Shown here in pieces: positions 3,283-35,349 of a DNA stretch of 64,000 bases; the stretch's first letter is position 1, and the number at the start of each line of letters is the position of its first letter. The notes under the pieces are model-generated. The model made no database searches, was not told the DNA's origin, and saw only the letters and a list, made by a program, of their open reading frames with translations. A program made the position numbers and the translations under genes. The stretch is from a virus (Duplodnaviria; Caudoviricetes): the IMG/VR virus record IMGVR_UViG_2548876968_000003, positions 1 through 64,000 of that record; one strand, written 5' to 3'.

Positions 3283-3289
3283 TATCGGA
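3283..3289 (-). promoter_or_regulatory. Late-promoter motif TCCGATA (holin)
   Basis: 26 nt upstream of ATG 3256. Confidence 0.7.
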
Positions 3290-3298
3290 AATGATCGC

Positions 3299-3979
3299 TC
3301 ATTCCTTTGCCTCTAATATTTTCTTAGCCGATTCTTGATCGAATAATGCGTAACAAAAACCTGGAAAGTGCGGGTCCCTTTGGCGGGCTTCAAGTTCTGC
3401 TCCTTGGAATACAGAGATAAGAGATAGCCATTCCGGATGACTCCAATGAGCGCGGGTAACAGTGCATCCGAGCGAACTCACGCCTACAGAATCTTTTTCC
3501 ATACCTTGAGCGTGAATATTCATTCCAATGTACCCTTTGAATAAAGGATCCAAATGATTCCAAATATGATCCCCGTTTGCATCCCGACGAAAAGAAAACG
3601 CGGACGCTTGATTGAAAGCAATGTGTTCGTGATGAAGGCCGATCTTTACGAGATATAAGCCCTCTTCTGCTCTTGCTTCTCCTTTGGTGATTCCATATTT
3701 TAAAAGAATTTCTTTTGAAACTTTTCCCGGGTCCATCGTGACGACTCGACTCCCCCACGACTTCCCGCCCGGATAAATGTTAAAAAGTATGTCGTTAAAT
3801 CGATCGAATTGATTGTCGTTTAGAAAGACTTGATTGTCTTCGATCGAAATTCCCCTGACTCCGATCAGAACGTGATTCTTTTCAAAATTTAATTTAGGCC
3901 AGTTCTTTCGTTCTTGAGTAGTTTCGTAGCGAGATTTGGTTTCTTCTATTAAAGCGGGAATGAAATGATTGTATTCCAT
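3299..3979 (-). CDS. Putative endolysin, L,D-transpeptidase (YkuD)-like Cys peptidase
   Basis: GMNIH...SSLGC motif resembling HxxxS[HL]GC; lysis-cassette position. Confidence 0.6.
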   Translation of the reverse strand: MEYNHFIPALIEETKSRYETTQERKNWPKLNFEKNHVLIGVRGISIEDNQVFLNDNQFDRFNDILFNIYPGGKSWGSRVVTMDPGKVSKEILLKYGITKGEARAEEGLYLVKIGLHHEHIAFNQASAFSFRRDANGDHIWNHLDPLFKGYIGMNIHAQGMEKDSVGVSSLGCTVTRAHWSHPEWLSLISVFQGAELEARQRDPHFPGFCYALFDQESAKKILEAKE

Positions 3980-4004
3980 CTTTCAAAGATGAACGAAAAT
4001 AGAA

Positions 4005-4011
4005 TATCGGA
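4005..4011 (-). promoter_or_regulatory. Late-promoter motif TCCGATA (endolysin)
   Basis: 25 nt upstream of ATG 3979. Confidence 0.7.
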
Positions 4012-4055
4012 AGAAGTTTAAGGAGTATGATTTTTCACGTATTCCGTATAATCAT

Positions 4056-4574: not shown

Positions 4575-4575
4575 G

Positions 4576-5517
4576 CTATCCTAACGCACCAAAACTAATT
4601 CCCGTATATCTGAGTTTTCCTGTTTTCCACCAATCTTTAAGCTCATTACTGAGTTGTTTGATGCGGGCTCCGAAAAATGCGTTCTCAGCGCTCATCGTCG
4701 TCCCTATACTTTCGCTAATAACACCGACTGAGGTTGAGTAATTGGCGACGCCTCCGATGATCCCTTCTCCGTAGGAAGACAAAAGACAGATTGCAAAGTA
4801 CTTGAAAATTTGATCTTTTAATTCTCTCGGAACTCGGGACGCATGATCGTATCCGGTTGTGTAATCTACTTGATACGCTCCCGGTAAGGTGCCAGTTGAA
4901 CCGGTGATCCCGCGCCATGCTTGAATTCCCATAGTCGGTATGGGCATATTACCCCAAGGAGCTCGCGTATAGACTGCACGAAGAATTCCAGTTTTGTATT
5001 GAATCGTTGCTTTGTGAGTTAGATCGATCAATGTGGATCCGTTCCAAGGATAGGTAAGAACCCAACGGTGCAAACGACACAAATTCTTCCTTCTTAATTT
5101 TAAAAAGAAGTTTGTTCCTTTCGTGGAATCATAATCGTAAACATCATCCCATTCTGCATAATCTTCGATACTGCCGCTATTCGGCTCTAAATCGAATCTT
5201 CCATTTTGTCCGGGAAGAGGTCTGCTTCTAAAAAGTCTTGGATAAATATCCCAATCGATTTCGTTTGCAAAAGCGCGAATCGTTTGATCGACCCAATTCT
5301 TTAATTGAAAATCTTCCAATTGAGTTCCGCGCGTTGTCATTAAGGGCTCGTTTCCGAAAAATATGATTCGGCGAAGTTCATCCGGATGGATTAAAGTTCC
5401 CCAATTTGGGAGAGGTTTGCCACTCGCCTGTACTTCGGGATAAATTCGAGCGGACAGGTCGTGATATTCGTAATCTTCGGACTGTTGATTTAAGTCGCCG
5501 TCGTATCCGAAACTCAT
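4576..5517 (-). CDS. Head-tail adaptor/connector-like protein
   Basis: YQVDYTTGYD...VPRELKDQI motif typical of SPP1 gp15/HK97 gp6-type adaptors. Confidence 0.55.
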   Translation of the reverse strand: MSFGYDGDLNQQSEDYEYHDLSARIYPEVQASGKPLPNWGTLIHPDELRRIIFFGNEPLMTTRGTQLEDFQLKNWVDQTIRAFANEIDWDIYPRLFRSRPLPGQNGRFDLEPNSGSIEDYAEWDDVYDYDSTKGTNFFLKLRRKNLCRLHRWVLTYPWNGSTLIDLTHKATIQYKTGILRAVYTRAPWGNMPIPTMGIQAWRGITGSTGTLPGAYQVDYTTGYDHASRVPRELKDQIFKYFAICLLSSYGEGIIGGVANYSTSVGVISESIGTTMSAENAFFGARIKQLSNELKDWWKTGKLRYTGISFGALG

Positions 5518-5600
5518 CGGAACTCTCGATAGTATTTTTCTTGAATGTTAGAATGACGTACTGTTTTGGAATTCACTCCTCCAATATAGGGCCAGTTGAA

Positions 5601-5999
5601 TTAATCGGAGAAGATTTGAGACTTTGCAAATTCAAGATGATCGATCGGAAGAGAATATGTTTTTCCTGAAGTCAGTTCGCAAATTACTGTCTTTCCGTCT
5701 TCTGCGACTTGTTTTACTTTTGCGAGCATCCCTCCGACGTTTGCCCGTCCTTTTGCGTAGACTCTCATAATCATGCCTGGCCTCGGGAGTTTAGGACCGG
5801 CTCCGTATGTTTTTCTTTGTTCTCTTGCTTCGGTTTCAAAGGCTTTGTGACGTTCTGTCATTTCTTGAATGAGTACTTTTTCTTTTTCGTTGTGGAGACT
5901 TGTGTGTTGAATTCGGTTTCTTTGATTTTTTGCAACTTCAACTTTCTTCTCTCTTGGAGTTAAAACGTCGCTTCCGGTTTTCGTATTTCGGTAGGCCAT
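5601..5999 (-). CDS. Hypothetical protein with C-terminal KOW/SH3-like beta domain
   Basis: ATG 5999 has a purine-rich SD-like site; the track start at 6143 overlaps the neighbouring gene. Confidence 0.5.
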   Translation of the reverse strand: MAYRNTKTGSDVLTPREKKVEVAKNQRNRIQHTSLHNEKEKVLIQEMTERHKAFETEAREQRKTYGAGPKLPRPGMIMRVYAKGRANVGGMLAKVKQVAEDGKTVICELTSGKTYSLPIDHLEFAKSQIFSD

Positions 6000-6064: not shown

Positions 6065-6370
6065 TCAGTGCGACACTAGAGAGGCATTCACCCAAAATCC
6101 GGATACTTCGATTACTCCGGAGAAAGAGACTTCCGATACGCAAAGAGGAAGAAAAAATTGAAAGTCTCCCGTGCCAGACCGGGAATAATTCGTGAGTTTT
6201 TGATCGGCGTTGTTCCCTTTAACGGAAATTGTCCAGTCACCTAACGCGTGTATATTGGTTATATAATACAATCTTCCGGAATCGTTTAAACTTTCCGTTC
6301 CCAAAACTGTGAATTGATTTTGATACTGAATACGCCCTATGTCTTGCAGGGTGATCGATTTCCTACTCAT
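6065..6370 (-). CDS. Small beta-rich putative virion protein
   Basis: ORF with late motif 27 nt upstream of ATG 6370. Confidence 0.6.
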   Translation of the reverse strand: MSRKSITLQDIGRIQYQNQFTVLGTESLNDSGRLYYITNIHALGDWTISVKGNNADQKLTNYSRSGTGDFQFFLPLCVSEVSFSGVIEVSGFWVNASLVSH

Positions 6371-6397
6371 GAACACAATCTTACTCTAAAAAAAGAA

Positions 6398-6404
6398 TAT
6401 CGGA
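6398..6404 (-). promoter_or_regulatory. Late-promoter motif TCCGATA
   Basis: 27 nt upstream of ATG 6370. Confidence 0.7.
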
Positions 6405-6484: not shown

Positions 6485-6491
6485 TCCGATA
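6485..6491 (+). promoter_or_regulatory. Late-promoter motif TCCGATA (portal)
   Basis: 26 nt upstream of ATG 6518, on the plus strand like the gene. Confidence 0.7.
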
Positions 6492-6517
6492 AATACTTTT
6501 TTCATATACTCGCGTTC

Positions 6518-8146
6518 ATGGTGAAACAAGGGAAAGGCCGGCCGCGTGGAAATGATTATGAAAAGAATCTTGAAAAGAGAATCAGACTGGAACGTTCCAA
6601 AGAGATCGGACTTAAAAACGAAAAGATCAATCAAAGACTCTTACACCTTGCTAAATCCTGGTTCGGTCAAGTGAACACTCCGGAAGTCGCCGGCCGTAAT
6701 CCCGTATATAACTACGATCAGATGCAACAAATCCGAGATGGGATTCAGTTGCGGCCGACTTGGAGAATCCCTATTCCTCATCTTCGCAGTGCCAGTTACG
6801 GCACTTCTTTGATTTCTGCAATTCATACGGTTCGCGTTGAGGACTTGAGTAAGTTTGCGCGGATCAGTTCCAAATGTGGTTTGTGGTTTCGAATGGAAGA
6901 CGAGGATGAAGAGGTAACGGATGAAATCAGCACTCGTATGAAACGATGCGGTAAATGGTTTGATAAGATGGGTGATTTGACCCCCGGTTGGGCGAATCGC
7001 GATCACTTGGGTTCTGTTTTCGAAATGATGACGAGAGATACTCTCACTATCGATTCAATCGCGTTTTTTCTAATTTTTAATCCCTTCGGCAAGTTAATCG
7101 AAATCAGATATTTGGATCCTGCGACAATTTTTCCCGTGGATCCCGCAAAAGGGTACAGAGGAGATCGTTCCATTGCGTATGTTCAAATCATCGATGACAA
7201 CATAGTCGAGACGTTTGGAGCGAACGAAATTCTTTGGCTTCACAAAAATCATCTTTCGGACGTTTCCATGCGTGGCTTTGGCTTTTCTCCATTAGAGGCC
7301 TGTATGCTCGATCTTGTTGGCGTTATCAATTCTCTAAAATTCAATCGAGACACATTTTCCAGACAACATCCTTACGGTTATCTCTCTTTCCAAGGTGATA
7401 TCAGTCAAGAGGCGTTAGATTCTCTTCAGCTTCAATGGCAAGAAATGATCTCAGGCCTCGATGACTCCCATCGAATTCCGATTTTGGGTACTTCTGCGGG
7501 TGAGGTAAAATGGACACCTCTCAACATTCCAAATGAAATGGTATTTAAAGATCTCATGCAATGGTGTGTAAGCCTTGTGCTCATGGGTCATGGAATGGAT
7601 CAAGCGGAATTAGGCTTGCGTCTTATCGGTTCACAATCTTTATCAGAAGCAAACCAAACCGAAAAAAGCAAGCACTCGATGACTCGTGCTAAACTTAGTC
7701 TTTTAACTTACTTTGAATCTGCGTTTACGAGACTCAAAAATTTTCGGGAAGATGATTTCGGAGGGATTGTTTGCGAATTTAGCGGAAAGGATCCGGAAGA
7801 TGAGAAGGATAAAATTCAAAAACAAAAAGACGAAGTAATGAATTGGAAACTCGTGGATGAAATTCGAATTGCACAGGATGATCCGACAGTGGGCGAAACA
7901 ATCGCCGACTTGTATGGCGTTCCGGTAGAAGATTACAAAATGGCTGGTGCCCTCATATTAAATCCAATTTTTCAACAGAATATGATGCAAATTCAGCAAA
8001 ACGCTGCGGGTACAATGCAAGAACAAGAATATTCGGAAATGGGATATGATGAAAATCCCGAACAAAATGAAAACGGGATAGACGACGAAGAGTCAAATGA
8101 AGAATTCGAAGAGGAATTTGAACCGGACAAGGATTTAGTTTTTTAG
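6518..8146 (+). CDS. Portal protein (SPO1/Twort-like)
   Basis: YLDPATIFP, GFGFSPLEAC, FNRDTFS...PYGYL portal motifs; acidic C-terminal tail. Confidence 0.85.
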   Translation: MVKQGKGRPRGNDYEKNLEKRIRLERSKEIGLKNEKINQRLLHLAKSWFGQVNTPEVAGRNPVYNYDQMQQIRDGIQLRPTWRIPIPHLRSASYGTSLISAIHTVRVEDLSKFARISSKCGLWFRMEDEDEEVTDEISTRMKRCGKWFDKMGDLTPGWANRDHLGSVFEMMTRDTLTIDSIAFFLIFNPFGKLIEIRYLDPATIFPVDPAKGYRGDRSIAYVQIIDDNIVETFGANEILWLHKNHLSDVSMRGFGFSPLEACMLDLVGVINSLKFNRDTFSRQHPYGYLSFQGDISQEALDSLQLQWQEMISGLDDSHRIPILGTSAGEVKWTPLNIPNEMVFKDLMQWCVSLVLMGHGMDQAELGLRLIGSQSLSEANQTEKSKHSMTRAKLSLLTYFESAFTRLKNFREDDFGGIVCEFSGKDPEDEKDKIQKQKDEVMNWKLVDEIRIAQDDPTVGETIADLYGVPVEDYKMAGALILNPIFQQNMMQIQQNAAGTMQEQEYSEMGYDENPEQNENGIDDEESNEEFEEEFEPDKDLVF

Positions 8147-12151: not shown

Positions 12152-12541
12152 CTATCCCAAGTAAACTTCTACTAAAACTTGATTCGTATCGTAGGTGGTT
12201 GCGACTCTCAAAGAAGTAAGTCCTCCGGTCCAAGCCATAAACCCTTGCGGTAAAGGATGATCGATTGCCGATCCATTGATTCGAACAATAATTGGTGCGG
12301 GATCGTCTTTTTTTATTCCGATCGCTGTGTCATCGGCTAGGTAAGTTGCAAGAATGAGAACGTATTTAAACTGAATCCCTGCAGGAATCGGAATCGTTAC
12401 AAGATTGTCTGTTTGTTTAAATGCCTTGGTAAGTTTTTGAGGTTGTTGGACCTGGAATTCTTGAGCGAATTCCTCAACCTCTCTTTCGATTGCAACGCCG
12501 GTTCTATTGAAAAGCTGAAAAAGGACACGATGTATTTCCAT
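12152..12541 (-). CDS. Hypothetical virion-associated protein
   Basis: First gene of the fibre operon; late motif upstream. Confidence 0.6.
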   Translation of the reverse strand: MEIHRVLFQLFNRTGVAIEREVEEFAQEFQVQQPQKLTKAFKQTDNLVTIPIPAGIQFKYVLILATYLADDTAIGIKKDDPAPIIVRINGSAIDHPLPQGFMAWTGGLTSLRVATTYDTNQVLVEVYLG

Positions 12542-12566
12542 GCCTCTATTTTGAATTGGAATGAAA

Positions 12567-12573
12567 TATCGGA
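12567..12573 (-). promoter_or_regulatory. Late-promoter motif TCCGATA (fibre operon)
   Basis: 25 nt upstream of ATG 12541. Confidence 0.7.
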
Positions 12574-14301: not shown

Positions 14302-14662
14302 AGAATTTTAATTCGCTATCGATTCTGTCTAAAAGTTCTTTTCGTTTTAATTCCCCTTCACTCGTGAGCATGTCTTGTGAGTACCCGGCCTCTGCCTCCA
14401 GGATATGAGCCATTGCCGGGCTTATATTCTCTAGGAATTCCATCGGTTTCATCTTCAGAACTTGGCGTTTCTGAGATTGTAGTTTCGCTCTCATGAGAAG
14501 ATTCGGAATGTCGAGTCTGGCCGTCGCCTCGAGGAGAAACCTCTTTTGTTCGAGAAATAGATTTCCCAAATGAGTGATTCCTTTCGGAAGTATTTTCATC
14601 TGGTTCATAAGAAATAGGTCGAGCAGATTCTCTTCGTCGTTCAGTGCGTCGAGCGTCCCTAT
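14294..14662 (-). CDS. Frameshift extension of the tail assembly chaperone (GT-like product)
   Basis: +1/-2 frame opens exactly at the A9 run after an in-frame TAA and runs 122 codons to overlap the TMP start. Confidence 0.6.
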   Translation of the reverse strand: MGTLDALNDEENLLDLFLMNQMKILPKGITHLGNLFLEQKRFLLEATARLDIPNLLMRAKLQSQKRQVLKMKPMEFLENISPAMAHILEAEAGYSQDMLTSEGELKRKELLDRIDSELKFYG

Positions 14663-15005: not shown

Positions 15006-15030
15006 TCTCCAATCATGTACGCAAGTGCAA

Positions 15031-15037
15031 CATCGGA
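15031..15037 (-). promoter_or_regulatory. Late-promoter motif TCCGATG (chaperone/TMP)
   Basis: 25 nt upstream of ATG 15005. Confidence 0.6.
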
Positions 15038-15108: not shown

Positions 15109-15172
15109 TATAACCCCTATGGTAATGCGTAGGGCGCGGGGCTACTTCGAAAGAGGTAGCCCTTGCTTTATT
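15109..15172 (+). ncRNA. Candidate structured leader/small RNA upstream of the NYN gene
   Basis: Hairpins CCCTAT/GTAGGG and GGGCTACTTC-GAAA-GAGGTAGCCC followed by a T-rich tract. Confidence 0.35.
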
Positions 15173-24153: not shown

Positions 24154-24179
24154 AGAGACCCTTGTATTAGCGAAAGAAA

Positions 24180-24186
24180 AATCGGA
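24180..24186 (-). promoter_or_regulatory. Late-promoter motif TCCGATT (protease-scaffold-capsid)
   Basis: 26 nt upstream of ATG 24153. Confidence 0.65.
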
Positions 24187-24508: not shown

Positions 24509-24564
24509 TTCCAGAAGCGTCTGGAATGAGTCGCCTAGCGTCTCAACGAGGGGCTTTCAGCCCC
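24509..24564 (+). ncRNA. Candidate structured RNA upstream of the DUF3800 gene
   Basis: Hairpins TTCCAGA/TCTGGAA, a weaker TGAG/CTCA stem, and GGGGCT/AGCCCC; GC-rich island in AT-rich DNA. Confidence 0.35.
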
Positions 24565-24592
24565 ATCGCCAGTCGCCGTCCTCATAAAATTT

Positions 24593-25492
24593 ATGTATCT
24601 TTGCTACCTGGATGAATCTGGGACTCCAAACATTCCTGGAAATACAAGCCACTACGTTTTAGCTGGTCTTTCTATTCCTGTGAAATTCTGGAATATAAGC
24701 GAAAAGCAAATTGATACTATAAAAAGAAAATTTAATCTTGAAGGTGCCGAAATTCATACAGGTTGGATTTTAAGACCGTATTACGAACAACAGAATATTC
24801 CAAATTTTGAATCATTAGACCACATACGAAGAAAACAAGAAGTCGAAAGATTTCGGATATCTGAAATTCACAAACTTCAAAGACAAAAGAATTCAAAAAG
24901 ATTAAAACAAACAAAAAAGAATTTCAGAGAAACCGCCTCATATATTCACCTCACTTATACAGAACGTCTTAATTTTATTACAGAGTTAGCGCAAACAATT
25001 GCAAATTGGAGCTATGCCCGATTATTCGCTGAATGTATTGATAAACTTCATTTCAACCCGACTATTTCTGCAAGACCTTTAGATGAGCATGCTCTTGAGC
25101 AAATTGTAAATCGATTTCATAAATATTTAGAAATAATGGATAGATCCGGACAAGTGCCTGAAAGTTACGGATTATTAATTCATGATAATAACGATACGGT
25201 AGAGAAAAGGCATACGGATTTGATGCGTCATTTTCATAACCACGGAACATTTTGGGGGAATATTACTAAGATTATCGAAACTCCTCTATTCGTTGATTCA
25301 AAACTTACTAGTATGATTCAAATTGCCGATTTATGTTCTTATTCTTTAAGAAGATATCTAGAAAATTCGGAAGACTCTTTATTTAATTTGATTTTTCAAA
25401 GAGCGGATAGAATTAACAACTCTGTCGTTGGAGTTAGGCATTTCACTTCTCAAATGTGCAATTGTAGAATATGCTCATCTAGACATCCTTAA
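24593..25492 (+). CDS. DUF3800 family protein (RNase H-like, predicted nuclease)
   Basis: YLDESG, EIH, IIHD and QIADL motifs. Confidence 0.85.
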   Translation: MYLCYLDESGTPNIPGNTSHYVLAGLSIPVKFWNISEKQIDTIKRKFNLEGAEIHTGWILRPYYEQQNIPNFESLDHIRRKQEVERFRISEIHKLQRQKNSKRLKQTKKNFRETASYIHLTYTERLNFITELAQTIANWSYARLFAECIDKLHFNPTISARPLDEHALEQIVNRFHKYLEIMDRSGQVPESYGLLIHDNNDTVEKRHTDLMRHFHNHGTFWGNITKIIETPLFVDSKLTSMIQIADLCSYSLRRYLENSEDSLFNLIFQRADRINNSVVGVRHFTSQMCNCRICSSRHP

Positions 25493-25769
25493 ATAAAAAA
25501 ATACGGAATATTAATTACTCATTATCATCTATTACTTTCAAAATAGAAAGATAAAATAAGTCTATAAAGATTACCAGTAAATACTCGAATTTGTTGTCCA
25601 TAAATACGAGTTGGGAATAAAATGGGGATGTAATTAAAAATACTAATTGTCCAGTCACCTTATTTCAAACCATCCACTCGTTGAATGTGAAGACAATTCT
25701 TGTTTTCCTAATATTGTCAAGCGCGTACTTTTTTGGATTTTACCGATCAGATTCACGATTTATAAAAAC

Positions 25770-26159
25770 TTACGGATCGGAAACTAAAAGATACACACGC
25801 AACTTTCCAGCGCTACACCCGTTTGGACTCCAATATACACGGGCTTGAGTAAGGGAAGTAAGAATTTCGAACGCAAATCCTAAAAAAATACCGGATAAAG
25901 AAAGGTCTGTTCCATTAGCGCCTAACCATTTGTCTGCGGTTATCGTGTCTCCTACCGTGAGAGAAGGAGATCCGTTAAATGGAGTAAGGACTCTAACAAA
26001 GACTTGAACTACCACAGAATTCACCTGAAGAATATCCCCTAAATTTAAGGTGCCGGCCGCATTTGAAAAATCGATTTCGGCTTCAGCAACGTTTAGTTTT
26101 TTCAAACGATTGTCCTCCGGAAAGTCCTCATTGGTAAACGGACCGAGAAAGCTAGGCAT
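25770..26159 (-). CDS. Putative head decoration/spike-base protein
   Basis: VLTPFNG.PSLTVGD jelly-roll-like motif; late motif 38 nt upstream (26198-26204). Confidence 0.5.
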   Translation of the reverse strand: MPSFLGPFTNEDFPEDNRLKKLNVAEAEIDFSNAAGTLNLGDILQVNSVVVQVFVRVLTPFNGSPSLTVGDTITADKWLGANGTDLSLSGIFLGFAFEILTSLTQARVYWSPNGCSAGKLRVYLLVSDP

Positions 26160-26214
26160 TTAAAGTTTCCCTCGAATAAAAATAGCAAAGCGAAATATAT
26201 CGGAATTTTTTAGA

Positions 26215-29200
26215 TTATAATAAAGTTTCTTGGTCTTCTACCGCAGATTTTCTTTTTTTCTTTTGTTTTACAATATCACCAACCGTATCTAGGTTTTCTT
26301 CTACCAAAGAAATTCGTTGAGTGTTTGAATCGAATGGTTTCACCCAGTTTTTTTGAAGCTTCATTTCTCTAAAAAAAACCTCAAACGCGTTATAAATTCG
26401 AATCCTTTCTTCTCTTTGTGGATAAGCAAGTTCCCTAAGTTCGCCATCCGTCAATGAATCAGGATCGCCGACTGTATTTGGGGCAACCAGATAATTGTTT
26501 TTCATTCCTTTCGCTTTCATTTTGTCTTCAACGTAAGATTCAAAAGCCCTTGCGAATAATTCCCTTGGTTTTGACCAATATTTTGATCCGATTTTCTGCG
26601 CTGAAATAAAGTAGTTTGTATTTTTTCCTGAAGGTGATTTTCGAATAGCATTCATCAAAACTCGAGCAGAATCGCCAAATGACCCTTGAAAATCTTCGCT
26701 AACGTAATGACTTCCACCTCGGTTGGCTTCTTTTCCTGTAGCCAAGTGATCTAAAAAATGCCCGAATTCGTGAGCAAAAGTTCCATCCCCTTTTTTCTTT
26801 GTTAGATTTATGATTCTGTATCCTGGTTCATAATGAGCCATTGCCTTTCCAATTCCACGAGCTCCAAAAGACATGCTTAAATTTCCTTCATGGATCACTT
26901 TAGACAGATCCATTTCTAAAGCGTCTTCTAAATCTTTTAAAGCACATACGAAACGAGTAATATGTTCTCGGGAAGTTCGATCATCCATATAATTTCCAAA
27001 TTGTACGGATTTAAAACCCCAATCTTGAGTCAATCGATCGGATGCAATTTCATTGGGTTTAACGATACGTCCATTGGCACGTATGAGCTTTGGAAGTGGT
27101 GAACCGCCATGAATTTCATAGCCGGATCCCTTTGTCCCGATTGAACGTTTTTTATCCAACCAATCCCAATTGTTTTCCCTCACTTGATTTTTTGGATCTT
27201 TTGCCCATTCTTCGCGGGAATGAGGTTTTTTAAAATTAATTGCATAAGCATATTTTTTTTCAGCAAACTCTCTTCTACCTATAGCATTTTGAAAACGTTT
27301 ACGAAAATAATCTTCAAACGTTGGATATTTCTTTTTCACACGCTCGATATACTCTTTATCTTCGCGTAGAAAATTATTGCAATACTTTTCATACTGTGCC
27401 TTTGCTTCTTGCTCACCAAGTGGTTCAAAAAGCTTTGCATTATTCCAAATATTTTTTCCGGAATCGGTTCTCCTCCGGAGAAGGTTAATCAGTTTGTCTC
27501 CAAATACAGTAGAATGTACAATCAAATTTGGATCGTTATCGAAACGATAGGAAGGTTTCTTTAAAAAGACCATGATTTCTTTACGAAAATCATAAGAGTT
27601 AATCACTTTTCCATTAAGAATTCTATCAACTAATACCTCGGAGCCAGGGATAATTTCAGCAAAGAGTTTTTGATATTCTTCCTTTAGAATGTTTTTTTCG
27701 TTCTCAGTAATTCCATTTAATTTTGATTTAAGAGAGTTCATAACCTCTCCAAATTTATTGCTTAAATCGTAAGGACTAATCTCAACAAAATTCAAAGAAT
27801 AACTTTGTATTTCATTGATGGTTTTGGCGTTAAAAATAGGCGCCATAATCTTTTCTAAATTTTTAACGTATTGTTCCCGTGCAAAAGGAGAATCGGCAGG
27901 TTTAGACGCTATTGCTTCATAAATTTTTGCTTTTAAATAGGTAAGCCCTGCACTTTCCCCTTTTTCTTTACGTTCTCTAGCGTTGAATGGAGTTATCACT
28001 CGATCTTTCTTTACGACTCGTTCGGCTGTTACGAAATCCATATTTGAAATATCCGCATAGGAAAGTAATTTTGAGAGTGCGGCTCTTTCTTTCTTCGAAC
28101 CTTCTACGCGAGTATTTGCATCTTTGAATTCCTTGTTTTTTTCCCTATCATCTAATATTTCAGAAACGGAATTAAAGGACTTTTGTTTTACGGACTTTAC
28201 CGTTTCTTTTATAAGTGTAGTGTTTGATTGCGGTGGGATAGCATTTCTTTCATCCAAAATTCCTTGAATTCCCACTTCAACGATATGTTCACCGACTGCA
28301 TTCTGATTTCCTTTCATCGCTTCAGAACGAACATTTGGATCCGCCGGTTTTACGATTTTTCCATATTCTTCCGGCTCTGAAAAATATTTCTGAATAAGGC
28401 GTTTTGATCTTATACCTTGATCGATCGCTTCGGTTTTTGTTTTAAATCGAACTGGCCAGTCTTCTAATTTATCTCCATCAGTTGGTAATTTTAAAGTCCA
28501 ATCATTCGAATTACTCGCAACTCCCCGATTCGAAACATTCAATTCCGGTTGGTAGTTATCAACGAAGGTGCGTGAGATTCCTCCAGACATATTTTTATGA
28601 TACAAAATATCATCTGTATGCTTGGTAAGAGTTACTAAGCGAGTAGAGACTCCGGTTTGTCTGAAAGAATCTTTTCCAGTAAAAGAACCTTCCGGTAACT
28701 TTTCAGACGATCCTCTTTTTTCAGTTAACCACTTTCGAAATTCCTGTGACTTAATATCCGCCCGAAAAAACGGACCTTCAGACATGATTGCAACGAGTTT
28801 TCCGCCCGGTTTGAGTAGAGAATAGGCGTGTAATACATGACGAATATCTAATCCTTTCTCGAACGGAGGATTCATTAGAATACGATCATACCTTCTATCC
28901 ACAAAATCTAAAAAATCGTCCGCAACAATCGTATATCCTTTTGCTTGCAGAATGTTCTTTAAGGAAAATATAGGTTCAATCGTATCAGGATGAATTCCTG
29001 TCTCTTCCGAAATTACTTCCGCTAAGTCTCCTTTCCCGGCAGAGGGTTCGAGAACATCCATTCCAGGCTGAATATCTGCCTCAATGATAAGTCTTTGTGC
29101 TAAGGGTTTTGGCGTTGGAAAGAATCCTGGAATTTTATTTCCAATCAGCTCCCTTTCCATATTCCGAATTTCAATTTTCTTCGGATCGGATCCGCCGCCT

Positions 29201-30969
29201 TTGTTCTTTGCTATGAGGGTGCGAAGATACTGACCGGCTTCATGGACTTGTTCAAAAGTATTTAGTCCTAACCGAAGGACAGCTAACGACCTTTCGGCAT
29301 AGTTCGAGTAAGGATTTCCTTTAAAATATAACTCATAGGGTTTATCTTTTATAATTACGGGGTTTTTTGTATTTGGCTTTGCGGGACGGGCATAAAGACA
29401 CTGTTCAATTTTATTAAACTTATCCATGAGTCTTTTCAAGGACTCAACTTCTTCCAAATTAGAGGATTCGATAAATTCGGCTTCATAGGAACCGATTGTT
29501 TTTTGAACCTTCTTTGCTTGTTCTAGTTCTGACTTTGAAATCAGCCCGTTTTTGTATGCCCAGGTCAGATTATGACTGTATATTTTATTATTACCAGAAA
29601 CAGTTATGTGATTCGTTTCTGTTTCTGAAATAAATCGCGGTTCTATTTTTCGAAACCATACTGATAATCTCTCGGTGAGGGGCTTCTGAGTTTGTGTATC
29701 TCGATTATTCCTGTGATTGTCTAGTGAATGAGAAACATTGAGAATTTGTTCAATGTCCTTCTTGCTTTTTATCTTTTTGAGATTCTCAGGAAACGTCCCT
29801 AAATCTATCTCATCCGCTATTCCCCGTAACGCAGATTGAATGTCCCGCATTTGTTTGGTGTCTTCATACATAGCATCTGCAATTCTCGCTCTGCGAAAAG
29901 TTACATTTTGCCTTGAAATGGGTGGGCTTTCTTTGTTACGAATCGATTCTTCCATCGAATCGGCTAAGTTTCTAAACTTTGTGGATAGAACTGCGCGTTT
30001 TACTAGCGAGGTATCATCAATTGGTTTTGGTTTGATTTTCGCGTTATAATTGAGAAGAGATTCAGTTACATAGTTTCGAATAATCTTTAAAACGATCGAA
30101 GGTTCTTTTTCTATAAGTTTCGAAAGAGCGTCGTTTATCTTTGCCGATATAGCGAGAGGAATGAGTTTTTTTTCTACGGATTCTTTGAGTCTTTCAACGT
30201 ATAAACTGTCATCCGGATTTAATTCAGAGTCCTGTAATTGAACGACAATTCCGGAGAGCGAATCCGACGTGAGTTTTGAGGTTTTGGGTTCCTTTACGTC
30301 ATGTTCACCGGCCGCATTCTCATTTCCAAGCATGGCCTCTGAAAGTGATCTTTTTGTTTCTTGAACTTTTGAAGAAATTAAGAAACGAATGATCTTATTT
30401 ACGCTTTCAGAGGAGATACTTACAAATTTGTAAGAAATGTTTAAAAGACTATTTAGATTGTTTTCTCCCTTGTAAGCGAGATCAACGAACTCACTGGCTC
30501 GTTTGTCAAGTCCCGCGTCTAAAAGCGTATTTTTTACCTGTGTGATAAAATCTCCTAAGTCACGAATCGAGTCAGGGAAGTAGTTGGGTTTGTAATTTTG
30601 GTTTAAGTATTTTCTTTCTGTCTTCGGTGCTATATTTAAAAGATTCGGTTCAGAAGAGAGGGTTTGTTTTTTTGGTTTTTGTACTTTTTCTGAAATGAGG
30701 GTGAACGGTTTTTCTTCGATTGAAGGCGGTTCGCTATTTTTGTTTGTTTCTTTAGGAGAATGTTCGATCTTCTTTACCGTATCCGCAATGATCTTGGAAG
30801 CTCGTGCTTGCGAAGGCGATTTAATCATCGCCCAGGCCCCCTTTTCTCCGGAAGGTTTTACCTTTCGCCAAACGGAACCGTCGGCATGAGTCGAAGGCCA
30901 GCCTACCGGCTTTTCCTTCGATTTTAAGACTTGCAATGTGGATTTAACAACTTCACGGATAGACGACAT
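26215..30969 (-). CDS. Large polyvalent protein: adenine MTase plus LPD1-like HExxH domain
   Basis: VLEPSAGKG and MNPPF; GFKSVQFGN, FAHEFGHFLDH, ELFARAFESYV. Confidence 0.85.
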   Translation of the reverse strand: MSSIREVVKSTLQVLKSKEKPVGWPSTHADGSVWRKVKPSGEKGAWAMIKSPSQARASKIIADTVKKIEHSPKETNKNSEPPSIEEKPFTLISEKVQKPKKQTLSSEPNLLNIAPKTERKYLNQNYKPNYFPDSIRDLGDFITQVKNTLLDAGLDKRASEFVDLAYKGENNLNSLLNISYKFVSISSESVNKIIRFLISSKVQETKRSLSEAMLGNENAAGEHDVKEPKTSKLTSDSLSGIVVQLQDSELNPDDSLYVERLKESVEKKLIPLAISAKINDALSKLIEKEPSIVLKIIRNYVTESLLNYNAKIKPKPIDDTSLVKRAVLSTKFRNLADSMEESIRNKESPPISRQNVTFRRARIADAMYEDTKQMRDIQSALRGIADEIDLGTFPENLKKIKSKKDIEQILNVSHSLDNHRNNRDTQTQKPLTERLSVWFRKIEPRFISETETNHITVSGNNKIYSHNLTWAYKNGLISKSELEQAKKVQKTIGSYEAEFIESSNLEEVESLKRLMDKFNKIEQCLYARPAKPNTKNPVIIKDKPYELYFKGNPYSNYAERSLAVLRLGLNTFEQVHEAGQYLRTLIAKNKGGGSDPKKIEIRNMERELIGNKIPGFFPTPKPLAQRLIIEADIQPGMDVLEPSAGKGDLAEVISEETGIHPDTIEPIFSLKNILQAKGYTIVADDFLDFVDRRYDRILMNPPFEKGLDIRHVLHAYSLLKPGGKLVAIMSEGPFFRADIKSQEFRKWLTEKRGSSEKLPEGSFTGKDSFRQTGVSTRLVTLTKHTDDILYHKNMSGGISRTFVDNYQPELNVSNRGVASNSNDWTLKLPTDGDKLEDWPVRFKTKTEAIDQGIRSKRLIQKYFSEPEEYGKIVKPADPNVRSEAMKGNQNAVGEHIVEVGIQGILDERNAIPPQSNTTLIKETVKSVKQKSFNSVSEILDDREKNKEFKDANTRVEGSKKERAALSKLLSYADISNMDFVTAERVVKKDRVITPFNARERKEKGESAGLTYLKAKIYEAIASKPADSPFAREQYVKNLEKIMAPIFNAKTINEIQSYSLNFVEISPYDLSNKFGEVMNSLKSKLNGITENEKNILKEEYQKLFAEIIPGSEVLVDRILNGKVINSYDFRKEIMVFLKKPSYRFDNDPNLIVHSTVFGDKLINLLRRRTDSGKNIWNNAKLFEPLGEQEAKAQYEKYCNNFLREDKEYIERVKKKYPTFEDYFRKRFQNAIGRREFAEKKYAYAINFKKPHSREEWAKDPKNQVRENNWDWLDKKRSIGTKGSGYEIHGGSPLPKLIRANGRIVKPNEIASDRLTQDWGFKSVQFGNYMDDRTSREHITRFVCALKDLEDALEMDLSKVIHEGNLSMSFGARGIGKAMAHYEPGYRIINLTKKKGDGTFAHEFGHFLDHLATGKEANRGGSHYVSEDFQGSFGDSARVLMNAIRKSPSGKNTNYFISAQKIGSKYWSKPRELFARAFESYVEDKMKAKGMKNNYLVAPNTVGDPDSLTDGELRELAYPQREERIRIYNAFEVFFREMKLQKNWVKPFDSNTQRISLVEENLDTVGDIVKQKKKRKSAVEDQETLL

Positions 30970-30998
30970 TCTGCCCGAAAGTATGAAAGAATAGAGTC

Positions 30999-31005
30999 TA
31001 TCGGA
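30999..31005 (-). promoter_or_regulatory. Late-promoter motif TCCGATA (polyvalent protein)
   Basis: 29 nt upstream of ATG 30969. Confidence 0.65.
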
Positions 31006-31048: not shown

Positions 31049-32617
31049 TCACTCAGTATACGCCGAAGTGGACGTAGGACTCCATTTGAACGATACGTTC
31101 GTATTTGCTTTCCCTTGACCCGGAGAGAATTCATCGATCACGTCTGTGATATATCCAAACTCACTGATCTCGTCTTCCGGTATCGGATATTTTTTAGAAG
31201 CGTCCATTACGATACGAAAGGGCATTCCCGGACGTAATGGAATAAAAGGAAGATCAAAAGAACCACTGGCGATTTTTAACTCTTCGATATCGCAGAAAAT
31301 ATTAAAGAGCATATCGCGAATTTTAGCGAGCTCACCTTTGTAGTTTTCTTTGATTGTCTCGTTTAGATTTTCCTCTTTAAAAACGAGTCCGGCCATCTTT
31401 ACATGAAGCAGTTTTGGACCGAAAATTGAACGAAGTCTGTCTTCGTATTTCGGCTCGGAAAGAACAGTTCCAAATTGTTGAAATGTATTCTGAATTACGT
31501 GAACACCCGCGATAATCGAATCTTCCGAATCTTCGATTCGATAATTCTTGAGATCATCAAAGGCTAAATAATAACAAGCGTCGATATTCGATGTTTTTAA
31601 ATCCCGGTATTTCCCGTTCTTCCCAAACATGTAAAAAGGGGTTGGCCTGAAAACTACCTGGGCCTCCTTTCTTCCTACTTCGTATTCTTCGATCTTATTC
31701 GATCCTATCTCACCTAAAGAAACCCCCTTCCCATACATTCCGTCGATTTGAAAGGTTTGGAGTGGATCCACGAACAATTCGTAGAGAGGTTCGGAAACAT
31801 ACGATCTTAGTATTTCCCAAAAGTTGACGTACGAGCCGATTGAAAAACTCGATAGCACTTGAGATTCGTATGTGAAATATTCCGTGTATGCTTTTTTTGG
31901 AAGAAGGATCGTTAAAATAGAATCGGGATCGTTTTCTGTAGTCGGTGAAAGTACTGGATGATCTGCATACCTTGAAATGTTCATCAATGTACAAAAAAAC
32001 TCATCCCAAAAGTTTTTGATTAAATCGGACAACTGTCCCTGTAAAAATACTTTCGTCGCTTTTGTGATCACTCCTGCATACGATTCTTGGGTCCGAGTGG
32101 GTGGCTCTCCTTCTGTTCTTTGATAGTCGATAAAAAAGTCGGTATCGGAAAGAAGAGTCTCAATCGGTGAAATAGTGACACTGACAAAACTTTTTCCATC
32201 GGCCGAATATTCTCTAGACGCAGATTTTACCTTGCCAACGTTTAACTTGTTAAACCTACTTTCCTCTGAATTGCCTGATCCATTATCGTAATAAATAAAA
32301 ACAATACTCCTAACCGGGAATATATCTCTGAATCTTAAAAATTCTCCCTCTTTAATTTGAGATAAAGGCAGAGGAGTATCTGCATTGCGTTGAACGAAGT
32401 ATCCTTCTTGGTACGGAATTGTAAGCGCGATTCCTCCCCTTTGCGCGGAAATGGAACGATGAGATTTGATAGTCGTAACGTGTTCTACGGGAAAGAAAAT
32501 ACTACTGGATGATCCAGGTAAATGGACCTCGATCGCAAACGATTTTGGCGGAAAACCAATACCCCTTCGCTCTGTTATCTTTTCTACTTTGTCCGGATCG
32601 AAAGCTTGAGTCGACAC
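31049..32617 (-). CDS. Baseplate hub protein
   Basis: WEILRSY..EPLYELFVD and VFRPTPF motifs; follows the spike gene. Confidence 0.65.
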   Translation of the reverse strand: MSTQAFDPDKVEKITERRGIGFPPKSFAIEVHLPGSSSSIFFPVEHVTTIKSHRSISAQRGGIALTIPYQEGYFVQRNADTPLPLSQIKEGEFLRFRDIFPVRSIVFIYYDNGSGNSEESRFNKLNVGKVKSASREYSADGKSFVSVTISPIETLLSDTDFFIDYQRTEGEPPTRTQESYAGVITKATKVFLQGQLSDLIKNFWDEFFCTLMNISRYADHPVLSPTTENDPDSILTILLPKKAYTEYFTYESQVLSSFSIGSYVNFWEILRSYVSEPLYELFVDPLQTFQIDGMYGKGVSLGEIGSNKIEEYEVGRKEAQVVFRPTPFYMFGKNGKYRDLKTSNIDACYYLAFDDLKNYRIEDSEDSIIAGVHVIQNTFQQFGTVLSEPKYEDRLRSIFGPKLLHVKMAGLVFKEENLNETIKENYKGELAKIRDMLFNIFCDIEELKIASGSFDLPFIPLRPGMPFRIVMDASKKYPIPEDEISEFGYITDVIDEFSPGQGKANTNVSFKWSPTSTSAYTE

Positions 32618-32640
32618 AGAGAAAATCGTAACGGATTAGG

Positions 32641-33360
32641 TCATATCGGAGGACTAGTCTTTGTAGGAGGCAATGGACCTGGGTTATAAAGATGGTTGTG
32701 TTCTTTTAAAGAGGTTCCCGCCGCGATCACATCTGCATCAGAAACGATTTTTTCAGTTGCTTCAATTTTACCGGTTATATCTAAATCGCCTTCAAAGGTA
32801 GTTTTTCCCACAATTTTTGTATCCCCGTTGATTTGAACTTTAGAATTTATCTCCACGTTTTCAAATGTGAGAGTCGCTTTTTTGGATGTAAAATCAAACT
32901 CTAATACGACTTCTTGTGAATCGTTATAGACCTCTATCTTATTCGTAGTTTGACGAACCGCGTAGCCAGACTCGTGAAAATCAATTATGTCTGTCTCCGG
33001 GTTGATAAAAGAAAATTTATTCCAGAAGTCCTGAATATTCGATAAGTCGGAATCCTTGGTAGAAAAAGGGAAAACTTGAGTGATGATAGGAGCGCGAAAA
33101 GAACCTCCAATAAACTCAAGCAATACGAGCTGATTTTTTTTAAGACCAAAGGCTCTTCCATTTGCATTTCCTCCTTGTTTCAATGCAGGTCCAAAGTATC
33201 GAACTTTTTGAAATGGTTCTCCAAATGTAGTCAAAACATTTGCACGAAATCGAGGAAAGACGTCGGTTACGGTTGCAAGCATCGGAGGAGTCATTCTCGC
33301 GTCCGGAGACTGTGGTTTTTCCTGCCAATCGAAAGGATCGTTAGTAAAAGATCCTCTCAT
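32641..33360 (-). CDS. Baseplate central spike (gpV/gp45-like)
   Basis: N-terminal OB-like region, beta-strand repeats, C-terminal SLKEHNH (HxH). Confidence 0.75.
   Translation of the reverse strand: MRGSFTNDPFDWQEKPQSPDARMTPPMLATVTDVFPRFRANVLTTFGEPFQKVRYFGPALKQGGNANGRAFGLKKNQLVLLEFIGGSFRAPIITQVFPFSTKDSDLSNIQDFWNKFSFINPETDIIDFHESGYAVRQTTNKIEVYNDSQEVVLEFDFTSKKATLTFENVEINSKVQINGDTKIVGKTTFEGDLDITGKIEATEKIVSDADVIAAGTSLKEHNHLYNPGPLPPTKTSPPI
32644..32650 (-). promoter_or_regulatory. Late-promoter motif TCCGATA (hub), inside the end of the spike gene
   Basis: 26 nt upstream of GTG 32617. Confidence 0.6.
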
Positions 33361-35306
33361 CTCGAAATGATACTACTCCCGCCTGAAATCGATTCCAAAT
33401 AAAAGCGAAATAAAATCTTGTCCCCGTCTTGTAATACTCCCAAAAAACGAGCGTCATTCACTCTTGGATCCGACTTAAACTGTCGTATTAACTGTTGGAT
33501 ATATCCCTTACTGAATATCTCATCCGTGGTTTCTCCCCAAACGATCGGATTCCCTATCTCCGGACTTCCCGGAATCGATCCGATTACAATATCAATGTGA
33601 TCCAGTTTTTCATTCACGAGAGCTTCATCGCCTTCAATGATTGCCAAATCACCCGTCGGCGAAACATCAATCCCTCGATTCTCTGTAAGTTTTATATCGC
33701 ATCCAAGAAGTGCGATTTCTAAATCTCTTGGCGTCGGATTGTCCGGTAAGACCGTAAACACATTTGTCTTTGTCCCAAAGGGGATTTTAATCGCGCGGCT
33801 TGCAAGAATGGTCGTTTCATGTTGTCCGTTATAAAGCGCGAGTGCTTGACCTAAAGTCGCGTCCCCTAATTTTTTCGCTGCGACCTTTTCCCAGGTATCA
33901 CCCGATGAAACGTAATGTATGGAAAATTCATTGTCAACAGCCGCCTGATTGATTGCGCTCTGTGTTTCTAAAAGAATCTGATTTACCGTCAATGCAAACT
34001 GGTAAACATCGTTATCAATCCAAGCACTCAAATCCGCGTTCGGTTGTAGGGACATCGATTCATACGATCCTCCCGTTTGAACCGGAATCGTAAATTGAGC
34101 AATAAGAGAAATTAAGGCACTACAATCCGAAGAGGCCTTCTCTAAACTTTGTCTAAAATCCGCTTCGTTCGATCTTGATTTTTTGTATGCGTCGTCAATT
34201 CTTTGTGAGATTTCTTCAGCGTTAAATCCCCGTTTTTTTGATTTTATCCCAAGGTCGGCTTTGGCACTCTCGAAGGTTTTTCGTGCTAACTTTCCTTGCG
34301 CGTTAAACTGATTTTTCATCCGATCCCAAGAAGAGAAAAGTCTTTTGGAAGAGTTAGCAAAAACTTGAACACCTCGCGCGACTCCAAGAAGCGCACCCGA
34401 CAACTGCAAAGGGAGATTTACGATATTTTCTAACTCGTTCATGAGTCCCGAAATGGTTCTAAACGGATTGAAATTACTTCGGATGAGCTGACTCGTAATT
34501 GAAGAATCAAGTTCACGTACAACAACCAGATTCAACGAATATTTGTACGTATTTGTATCGGAGACGGAACGAGTAATCGTAAATCCACTAGACGGAACAA
34601 CGACCTCAACGGTTCGGTTTCGGTCATAGTCGCGAAAAATCATCGCGTGACTCTTCCAAGTCAGCCTTCTTTCTCTAAAAAGTTTTGCAATCTTTGAACC
34701 TTGAGGATCGTTTGACGTATATTGTACCGGGTCAAGATTTCTGGAATAGTGCAGGATGAACATAAAATCCTGGAATTCTTGAAGTCCCGATCGAAAGTCC
34801 CCTCCTCCGAGGCTTAGATAACTGCTTCTGATTTTATCATAATAATTACTTACAGTATTCGAAACGATACTTTTGGCGGCTGAAAATGCGGATTGAATAA
34901 AACCCGCACCCGCATCTCCCGGAATCGCAGACCTGGGTTTTGCAGGAAGTCCCAGGTGATAAATGTGGAATTCGCCTTCTAATTTAATCTCGTGGTTGTC
35001 CGGTCCATAGTCAACGACCACGACTCCCCCAAATGTTTTTTCAATCCCTACTCGGTATTTGAAATTCTCCGTATATTGAAGCGGACCATTTACAAAAAAA
35101 TATTCATTCGAAACGACATTCCCGTCCGTGAGATTATAGGAACCGTTATTTTGTTTTTCATAAAAGGAGAGAGAAAATACATTCTGCGGTTGGTAAGTCG
35201 GTGCTAAACTTCCGGAAAACGCTCCACCCGTAACAGAATTAAAAGCGGATTTCGCACCATCTGCTACACCTCCGCCGAATCCAGAAACCGAATCGAGAAC
35301 TCCCAT
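33357..35306 (-). CDS. Baseplate protein: tube-initiator-like plus LysM plus gp25-like domains
   Basis: HYVSSGDTWEKVA...ALYN (LysM); GDLAIIEG.EAL...G.P.IG (gp25-like). Confidence 0.65.
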   Translation of the reverse strand: MGVLDSVSGFGGGVADGAKSAFNSVTGGAFSGSLAPTYQPQNVFSLSFYEKQNNGSYNLTDGNVVSNEYFFVNGPLQYTENFKYRVGIEKTFGGVVVVDYGPDNHEIKLEGEFHIYHLGLPAKPRSAIPGDAGAGFIQSAFSAAKSIVSNTVSNYYDKIRSSYLSLGGGDFRSGLQEFQDFMFILHYSRNLDPVQYTSNDPQGSKIAKLFRERRLTWKSHAMIFRDYDRNRTVEVVVPSSGFTITRSVSDTNTYKYSLNLVVVRELDSSITSQLIRSNFNPFRTISGLMNELENIVNLPLQLSGALLGVARGVQVFANSSKRLFSSWDRMKNQFNAQGKLARKTFESAKADLGIKSKKRGFNAEEISQRIDDAYKKSRSNEADFRQSLEKASSDCSALISLIAQFTIPVQTGGSYESMSLQPNADLSAWIDNDVYQFALTVNQILLETQSAINQAAVDNEFSIHYVSSGDTWEKVAAKKLGDATLGQALALYNGQHETTILASRAIKIPFGTKTNVFTVLPDNPTPRDLEIALLGCDIKLTENRGIDVSPTGDLAIIEGDEALVNEKLDHIDIVIGSIPGSPEIGNPIVWGETTDEIFSKGYIQQLIRQFKSDPRVNDARFLGVLQDGDKILFRFYLESISGGSSIISR

Positions 35307-35333
35307 CGCTTGGAAGAATAAATTCTTTCACTC

Positions 35334-35349
35334 TATCGGATGTCCGATT
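35334..35349. promoter_or_regulatory. Back-to-back divergent late-promoter motifs
   Basis: TATCGGA-TG-TCCGATT: 27 nt from ATG 35306 (-) and 26 nt from ATG 35376 (+). Confidence 0.75.

Follow-up and report, generated by a model that had tools for sequence, protein, structure and literature searches.

A CCGAT box and a -10-like hexamer at set distances from virion-gene starts in an LE1-like plasmid-prophage of Leptospira

What kind of signal directs the late transcription of the LE1-like plasmid-prophages of Leptospira, and what might read it? The question is raised by a 7-bp box, (T/A)CCGAT(A/T), that recurs upstream of virion genes in the window, i.e., the 64,000-nucleotide stretch analysed here, which comprises the first 64 kb of the 75,781-bp virus record IMGVR_UViG_2548876968_000003 (86% complete). 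The window shows 97.9% identity to plasmid pLiSL18 of Leptospira weilii and belongs among the LE1-like plasmid-prophages of pathogenic and intermediate Leptospira. For the portal protein, identity amounts to 73% with vB_LalZ_80412-LE1, 67% with vB_LnoZ_CZ214-LE1, 56% with vB_LbrZ_5399-LE1, and 33% with LE1. An earlier note on this DNA had described the box as a single-element late promoter of the -10-only type. This description probably does not hold, as most boxes are followed by a second element, and the layout is (T/A)CCGAT(A/T), 13-15 nt, (T/C)AnnnT, 6-8 nt, start codon. With a probability of roughly 0.6, the hexamer would be the -10 element of promoters that produce leaderless late mRNAs, and the box, centred near -30, would be read by a further factor.

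The twelve copies listed in the earlier note were all recovered on their respective strands (every box in the list below except those at 5603-5609 and 26198-26204), and the distance of 25-29 nt between box and start codon is correct, the first C of the core lying 31-35 nt upstream of the start codon. The further copy at 26198 is also present and its distance from the start codon is 38 nt as claimed. A weaker ACCGAGA at 42525 exists as well, but has no conserved counterpart in relatives, so that its membership is doubtful and it is probably not one of the class. A 14th full copy, at 5603-5609 on the minus strand, had been overlooked because the gene that it serves is a mini open reading frame (mini-ORF) preceding the tail-fibre gene. 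The box is strand-specific, behaves as an element at the level of promoters, stands back-to-back at both strand switches, and heads about 14 short virion-gene operons. Nothing is conserved upstream of it, and the former statement that the sites share no -35 was right. In the whole window, the pattern WCCGATD occurs 100 times, where 70 ± 8 copies are expected; since this enrichment is only mild, the signal of the box is positional. When every 5-mer was scanned de novo in every 5-nt position bin upstream of 67-75 ORF starts, CCGAT at -35 to -31 ranked at the top, with 12 genes versus 0.64 expected (Poisson P 5.8e-12). The positional shuffle proposed earlier as a check agrees with this result: 300 rotations, in which k-mers are kept and their position is destroyed, gave at most 9 genes compared with the real 12.

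The units of the window, each with box, hexamer, start codon, and gene served, are:

3254-3289, minus strand: box TCCGATA 3283-3289, hexamer TAAAAA 3264-3269, ATG 3254-3256; gene 2918-3256.
3977-4011, minus strand: box TCCGATA 4005-4011, hexamer CATCTT 3986-3991, ATG 3977-3979; gene 3299-3979.
5514-5609, minus strand: box TCCGATT 5603-5609, hexamer TATATT 5583-5588, GTG 5574-5576; mini-ORF 5514-5576, then tail fibre 4576-5517.
6368-6404, minus strand: box TCCGATA 6398-6404, hexamer TAAGAT 6378-6383, spacer 14, ATG 6368-6370; gene 6065-6370, divergent from the portal promoter.
6485-6520, plus strand: box TCCGATA 6485-6491, hexamer TATACT 6505-6510, ATG 6518-6520; portal gene.
12539-12573, minus strand: box TCCGATA 12567-12573, hexamer CAAAAT 12548-12553, ATG 12539-12541; gene 12152-12541 and downstream tail genes.
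15003-15037, minus strand: box TCCGATG 15031-15037, hexamer CATGAT 15012-15017, ATG 15003-15005; gene 14358-15005.
20124-20160, minus strand: box ACCGATA 20154-20160, hexamer TATGAT 20135-20140, ATG 20124-20126; gene 19350-20126, then sheath and tube.
24151-24186, minus strand: box TCCGATT 24180-24186, imperfect hexamer TACAAG 24161-24166, ATG 24151-24153; gene 23230-24153, then major head protein.
26157-26204, minus strand, with leader: box TCCGATA 26198-26204, hexamer TATTTT 26179-26184, 19 nt including GAGGGA, ATG 26157-26159.
30967-31005, minus strand: box TCCGATA 30999-31005, hexamer CATACT 30980-30985, ATG 30967-30969; 1584-aa methyltransferase-containing protein.
32615-32650, minus strand: box TCCGATA 32644-32650, hexamer TACGAT 32625-32630, GTG 32615-32617; gene 31049-32617.
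35304-35340, minus strand: box TCCGATA 35334-35340, hexamer TATTCT 35315-35320, ATG 35304-35306; baseplate gene 33357-35306.
35343-35378, plus strand: box TCCGATT 35343-35349, hexamer TACGTT 35363-35368, ATG 35376-35378; baseplate J gene.

The two divergent baseplate boxes are 2 bp apart, and their units together fill the 69-bp gap (35307-35375) between the start codons.

The second element emerges from a pooled set of 39 box sites from four genomes, i.e., the window and three LE1-like relatives. Of these sites, 30 of 39 carry a (T/C)AnnnT hexamer at 13-15 nt downstream of the box, and the same proportion, again 30/39, was obtained with 39 further sites from six loci of L. interrogans, L. weilii, L. 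ainlahdjerensis, L. adleri, and L. inadai. When the window sites are aligned on the first T of the box (column 0), column 21 is A in 12/13 and column 25 is T in 10/13, with T or C in column 20. Among the 39 pooled sites, yAnnnT starts at offsets 20, 21, and 22 in 16, 6, and 8 cases, respectively, compared with 0-6 sites and mostly 0-3 at other offsets (offset 5 being excluded as the box itself matches there). The spacer between box and hexamer measures 13 nt in 16 sites, 14 nt in 6, 15 nt in 7, and 12 nt in 2, and the gap from hexamer to start codon is 6 nt in 13, 7 nt in 8, and 8 nt in 3 of 31 sites; the correlation between spacer and gap is imposed by the selection of sites itself and hence uninformative. 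Hexamers that end 5-9 nt upstream of the start codon are found at 30/39 box genes versus 64/355 other genes (Fisher P 1.4e-13), and Shine-Dalgarno-like sequences are rarer in box genes (3/39) than in the others (94/355; P 0.01). In the box itself, the core CCGAT(A/T) is invariant over the 39 sites and the first base is T in 24, A in 9, C in 4, and G in 2. Matches to the canonical two-hexamer sigma70 promoter show no excess in the late region (37 versus 35.2 expected). The unit at 26198 combines these features in another way: its start codon lies 12 nt further out than usual, the hexamer still follows the box after 13 nt, and a Shine-Dalgarno sequence, GAGGGA, appears, alone among the units of the window.

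The unit of the tail-fibre gene is instructive with regard to distance. Its box (5603-5609) is located 86 nt from the fibre ATG and is followed by 14 nt, TATATT, 6 nt, and a GTG, which opens a 20-codon mini-ORF (5514-5576, minus strand) whose TGA overlaps the fibre ATG as ATGA. This geometry, consisting of hexamer, 6 nt, start codon, and a mini-ORF of 10-20 codons with its stop codon overlapping the fibre start, is kept in six genomes (the window, Lal, L. interrogans p4, an L. weilii plasmid, L012, and L013). As the mini-ORF is kept in place and its peptides are unrelated between lineages, a start codon must hold that position relative to the promoter. Such a pattern is what initiation at the 5' end of an mRNA, combined with translational coupling, would produce. 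Where a start codon without Shine-Dalgarno sequence is preceded at 6-7 nt by TAnnnT with invariant A and T, this is the usual hallmark of a sigma70-type -10 element that serves a leaderless mRNA. Taken together, the position of the hexamer 6-7 nt before the start codon, the lack of Shine-Dalgarno sequences, and the mini-ORF geometry make leaderless mRNAs, with the box near -30, the best explanation for the fixed distance to the start codon.

According to this two-part reading, the hexamer, whose conserved bases are A (position 2) and T (position 6), would act as a sigma70-type -10 element. Transcription would begin at the start codon, or within a base or two of it, giving a leaderless late mRNA, and the box, then at about -32 to -26, would stand in for the absent -35 hexamer. 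The asymmetry of the 7-bp box suggests a monomeric reader, which could be a phage-made activator that works together with host RpoD-RNA polymerase in a geometry like that of T4 MotA, or an unrecognised alternative sigma factor with its region 4 on the box. As long as this factor is absent, the promoters would be silent in the lysogen. For the fibre gene, which lies further off, a leaderless mini-ORF would start at the obligatory position and pass ribosomes on by means of the stop/start overlap. Leaderless mRNAs are reported to be common in L. interrogans and the strong tal promoter of this species has CATGAT as its -10 element (PMC5243855), the same hexamer as at 15012-15017 in the window.

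Several observations weigh against the two-part reading. A recognisable hexamer is lacking in 9 of the 39 sites, and 7/39 start codons are GTG or TTG, which in E. coli are poor starts for leaderless messages. The transcript predicted at 26198 would have its 5' end directly at the Shine-Dalgarno sequence, and a rough survey of 777 kb of host chromosome shows a -10 hexamer next to start codons only faintly. Neither an activator nor a sigma factor was found in searches for Sigma70_r2, MotA, AsiA, Mor, and Ogr/Delta. Above all, the box core CCGAT(A) is identical to a host -10 class, a likeness that is either coincidence or unexplained by the two-part reading, and it is mainly for this reason that our confidence is not higher.

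With regard to the factor, the former observation that no sigma gene is seen extends to the whole 75.8-kb record, where none is detectable (no Sigma70_r2 match); helix-turn-helix (HTH) matches resembling region 4 are sub-threshold and situated inside ParB-like proteins. In the same record, MotA (PF09114) and AsiA (PF09010) gave no match at E ≤ 1, and Mor (PF08765) and Ogr/Delta (PF04606) gave no match either. Since the record is 86% complete, the gene for the factor may lie outside it. Comparison of about 40 proteins with Pfam and PHROGs yielded one conserved DNA-binding candidate, a ParB_N protein with an XRE-type HTH encoded at 50246-51157, which is the only recognisable DNA-binding protein common to all four box-bearing phages. 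It was not found in LE1 by tblastn or BLASTP and has no detectable similarity to LE1 gp72. A dimeric HTH protein would be an odd reader of an asymmetric 7-mer, and this candidate is therefore rated low. A weak HTH match at 48575-49210 probably belongs to the small terminase subunit, and protein-atlas look-ups made for this search returned no result.

The box is conserved beyond the window, although not in the whole family: of the LE1-like phages in which conservation had been suggested as a check, three diverged prophages carry it, whereas LE1 itself does not. CCGAT in that same bin is, independently, the top 5-mer by Poisson P in the prophages of L. alstonii (9 genes, 6e-7) and L. broomii (8 genes, 3e-7), and in the L. 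noguchii prophage it shares the top rank among 5-mers other than homopolymers with the overlapping CGATA (9 genes for either, 6e-9 and 1e-9). Orthologues of 9-11 window genes carry the box in three or four of the four genomes with flanks that cannot be aligned, and the box thus represents a phylogenetic footprint. For gene 3299-3979 the orthologue has kept its box in 3/3 relatives, and the box before gene 2918-3256 is confined to the window, the orthologues in relatives being devoid of it. In the L. alstonii baseplate J gene (Lal, L004:27901-28080), the annotated ATG follows the box by 9 nt, and an in-frame GTG lies another 18 nt downstream. With this GTG the usual arrangement is obtained (box, 14 nt, TAGTTT, 7 nt, GTG), and translation probably begins there.

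LE1 possesses a fixed unit of its own, TTGnnn-N17-(C/A)(C/T)TTGT-CnCTTCC(C/T) followed by ATG within 0-2 nt, in eight copies:

L002:5243-5258, LE1 unit.
L002:8192-8206, LE1 unit.
L002:13124-13138, LE1 unit.
L002:28596-28610, LE1 unit.
L002:32741-32755, LE1 unit.
LE1 record 43527, LE1 unit.
LE1 record 48036, plus strand, LE1 unit.
LE1 record 47965, minus strand, LE1 unit.

These units precede, among others, the genes for the portal, the giant methyltransferase, and the ParB polyvalent protein, the gene before the sheath gene, and both divergent baseplate genes; several of them precede orthologues of box genes of the window. As the sigma70-like -35 of LE1 lies 31 nt before the ATG, transcription would start at the start codon and the late mRNAs of LE1 would be leaderless as well. 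The position of the unit also implies a start of baseplate J (gp44) at 48051 and not at the annotated 47958. The LE1 unit resembles that of the window in its genome positions (portal, giant methyltransferase, divergent baseplate pair, and ParB polyvalent protein), in its fixed abutment to the start codon, and in the lack of a Shine-Dalgarno sequence. In contrast, it is a mirror image in its design: the -35 looks sigma70-like, the -10 region forms the special element, and there is no CCGAT box. The family thus keeps its predicted late promoters in the same places, directly against the start codons, with the specific motif replaced. The LE1 motif, which differs at the same positions, offers a natural experiment on the joint change of a promoter and its factor.

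A wider proposal, which we regard as tentative and more doubtful than the two-part reading, is that LE1-like leptophages possess a new late system, in which an unrecognised phage protein reads a -30 box that copies the sigma28-type -10 element of the host, late operons are leaderless with mini-ORF coupling where needed, and LE1 uses the mirror-image motif. The protein could be a monomeric activator of the sigma-appropriation type, a very divergent sigma factor, or the ParB_N-HTH protein (50246-51157) acting on RNA polymerase. In that case promoter and factor would have changed together within one phage family.

The main rival reading, although unlikely in our estimate, is that of the earlier note, in which the box is itself a -10 element of the sigma28 (FliA/WhiG) type. 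Transcription would then start about 8 nt after the box (6-8 nt in the earlier note) and produce leaders of 17-21 nt, and the late genes would be read by host FliA-RNA polymerase or by a phage sigma factor of that family, probably together with a phage activator as a -35 is missing. The likeness of the CCGATA core to a sigma28 -10, to which the earlier note had drawn attention, is borne out by differential RNA sequencing (dRNA-seq) of L. interrogans, as these data show many starts with a locked (G/A/T)CCGA(T/A)A at -15 to -8 (PMC5243855). Supplementary Table 7 of this study lists matches to a TAAA-N13-15-GCCGATAA-type matrix within 80 nt upstream of mapped L. interrogans starts; good CCGA(T/A)A matches pile up there at position 65-67, corresponding to -15 to -8 from the start, as in TCCGATAA, ACCGATAA, and TCCGATAC (PMC5243855). 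Two of the genes give leaderless messages, their ATG lying 15 nt downstream of the box. CCGATA is therefore a genuine -10 class of Leptospira, present at genes far beyond the flagellar set. The main text of the study does not point out an nCCGA(T/A)A class at -15 to -8, and the sheet "RpoD-30" appears to contain output of a sigma28 matrix (spacer 13-15, GCCGATAA-like -10). A probable flgM gene of a related host genome is preceded by canonical TAAA-N16-GCCGATA with a short Shine-Dalgarno leader; in this genome, TAAA-N14-16-GCCGATA has 12 matches versus 6 in the reversed control, and a few of the 12 look real, the one at the flgM-like gene included. Similarly, the flaB2 promoter of Treponema denticola has CCGATAA as its -10 (PMC9481697). 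Host CCGA(T/A)A boxes are situated 13-48 nt upstream of start codons, a range into which the 32 nt of the phage boxes falls, and a host sigma factor as reader would agree with the phage record having no detectable sigma gene. However, with transcription starting after the box, yAnnnT would occupy +6 to +11 of the transcript, where it has no known role. Box genes lack Shine-Dalgarno sequences although internal genes have them, and the distance to the start codon is fixed, being preserved even by a mini-ORF; to our knowledge, no mechanism requires a leader of 17-21 nt without a Shine-Dalgarno sequence. The start predicted in this way falls on the most pyrimidine-rich column (purine in 12/39), and no purine is found within ±1 nt in 12/39 sites. 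A sigma28 -35, TAAA at N14-16, occurs in just 4/39 sites, and the sequence upstream of the box has no information content. The base preference of the phage box also differs from that of the host class: CCGAT outnumbers CCGAA by 39 to 2 in the phages and CCGATT makes up 12/39 phage sites, whereas the host class, in the part of the table examined, shows about 10 CCGAT to 7 CCGAA at the locked position and no CCGATT (PMC5243855 Suppl. Table 7). Finally, whiG (FliA) is expressed and host promoters of the CCGA(T/A)A class are active in culture, so that the box alone would leave virion genes switched on in lysogens, where they have to be silent.

That both elements are -10-like in function seems improbable. 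They might form tandem promoters, one of the CCGATA type that starts transcription about 18 nt before the start codon and a leaderless one for sigma70, or a CCGATA-type promoter with a sigma70 pause element as at lambdoid PR'. Each element indeed matches a genuine host -10 class and the spacing between them is fixed, and the pause element of lambdoid PR' lies at a comparable distance from the start. Such an arrangement would nevertheless call for a pair of sigma specificities at every one of the roughly 14 promoters, antitermination of the Q type employs a single late promoter and not one per operon, and the missing Shine-Dalgarno sequence and the 6-7-nt gap between hexamer and start codon are left unexplained. 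Still less credible is a role of the box in RNA, as a processing site or translation signal on a longer transcript and no part of a promoter, a notion suggested by several copies in very short gaps of same-strand gene strings (12567, 3283, and 32644). At 35307-35375 the promoter for any box-carrying RNA would have to lie inside the opposite gene; promoters are required at the two strand switches, where no element other than the boxes is shared. Moreover, the box is orientation-specific and paired with a -10-like hexamer.

Further host data were consulted. Matches to the full composite pattern in the chromosomes of two host genomes do not occur at gene starts, which indicates a phage-specific class of promoters and not a host regulon. 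Measured from roughly defined ORF starts, CCGA(T/A)A did not peak sharply at any position in 777 kb of host chromosome. Host flagellin genes were considered as a source for a FliA consensus and discarded, as five flaB-type loci in a related host genome had long AAGGAGG leaders and no CCGATA within 200 nt. The L. interrogans dRNA-seq supplement (PMC5243855) contains no portal, terminase, capsid, or baseplate genes, and hence no starts of LE1-like prophages are readable from it. A single RNA run contains this DNA, with a quarter of the sampled words, in the form of assembled contigs that show no ends and so give no start sites. In this run, contigs over moron regions (15119-17028 and 24526-27206), which include an NYN-type gene, a DUF3800 gene, and neighbours, have a depth of 39-64 compared with 1-9 for virion genes; as contigs only, these data are weak, and they give a hint that morons are expressed in the lysogen.

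Among known systems, T4 middle promoters and the late promoters of P1 are those to which the unit is closest in its proposed working, although it is not counted as a member of either family, the defining T4 proteins MotA and AsiA being absent from the record. T4 middle promoters, which exist in many copies, have no -35 and carry an asymmetric MotA box near -30, about 12-13 bp upstream of a TAnnnT -10; they are used through sigma appropriation by MotA/AsiA. The unit of the window shares the missing -35, an asymmetric box near -30 upstream of a TAnnnT-type -10 (here with a spacer of 12-15 nt), and the many scattered copies. It differs in its box, TCCGATA compared with the TTTGCTTTA-like box of T4, in lacking a MotA or AsiA homologue, in serving late virion genes and not middle genes, and in its predicted leaderless transcripts. 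P1 is a plasmid prophage with many Lpa-dependent late operons, whose promoters combine a sigma70-type -10 with a phage-specific element that replaces the -35. Plasmid state, numerous late operons, and an upstream phage element instead of a -35 are therefore common to both, whereas P1 has its element, an inverted repeat of 9 bp, near -22, and the present one is an asymmetric 7-mer near -30. Promoters of the sigma28/FliA/WhiG/SigD type (TAAA-N15-GCCGATAA) have the identical core CCGATA, and the host genus uses nCCGA(T/A)A as a -10. In contrast to these, the phage sites have a TAAA -35 in only 4/39 cases, the fifth base of their core is always T and the sixth A or T, a second hexamer follows, and the box stands 32 nt, not about 15 nt, before start codons without Shine-Dalgarno sequence. 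T4 late promoters (gp55, TATAAATA, -10 only) likewise represent a phage-specific late motif without a -35, but two elements exist here, of which the downstream one is sigma70-like, and no gp55-like or other sigma factor was detected. No description of the box motif was found in papers on LE1, LE3/LE4, LE1-like prophages, or Leptospira sigma factors. The promoters of Leptospira are in general ill-defined: the one genome-wide study of start sites reported no consensus beyond sigma54 (PMC5243855), and reviews list FliA and eleven extracytoplasmic function (ECF) sigma factors whose targets are almost untested in Leptospira (PMC12655853).

If the two-part reading is true, a compact, conserved, and switchable promoter of about 35 bp with its own translation start would be at hand as a genetic tool for a genus of pathogens that is hard to manipulate. 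About 14 natural templates per phage would be available for finding the factor that activates virion genes in common plasmid-prophages of pathogenic Leptospira, and the units would allow leaderless translation and coupling through mini-ORFs to be tested cleanly in spirochaetes.

That the genes downstream of the box are virion genes, as claimed before, is supported by family matches to portal, major head, sheath, tube, baseplate, and fibre proteins. The same matches delimit a virion module from 2.5 to 39.6 kb, in which the following genes were assigned:

4576-5517, minus strand: tail fibre, match to phrog_772.
6518-8146, plus strand: portal, family match.
16912-17343: tail tube, family match.
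17346-19154: tail sheath, family match.
20961-22412: major head protein, family match.
33357-36572: baseplate genes, family match.

For 2502-3979, the stretch of supposed lysis genes, Pfam searches gave zero matches. The region from 39.8 to 59 kb encodes the large terminase, DNA methylases, ParB-like proteins, and replication genes. The former statement that the box is absent before replication genes is valid for the full unit of box and hexamer only, as TCCGATT is found at 55214-55220 (minus strand), at -34 of the replication-initiator gene 53785-55185, where the locked offset is devoid of a -10-like hexamer; this copy is probably fortuitous, or else a site of another kind. A string of large-terminase and head-assembly genes (39767-48663, minus strand) has no full unit at any gene start and directly follows replication, ParB, and methylase genes on the same strand. 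These genes may thus be transcribed by read-through from an earlier promoter and stand outside the late class. The gap that separates the major head gene from its neighbour contains, at 20897-20960 (minus strand), a G+C-rich hairpin with a T run behind it, which, to judge from its sequence, looks like a partial terminator that would raise the level of head-protein mRNA over that of the downstream genes.

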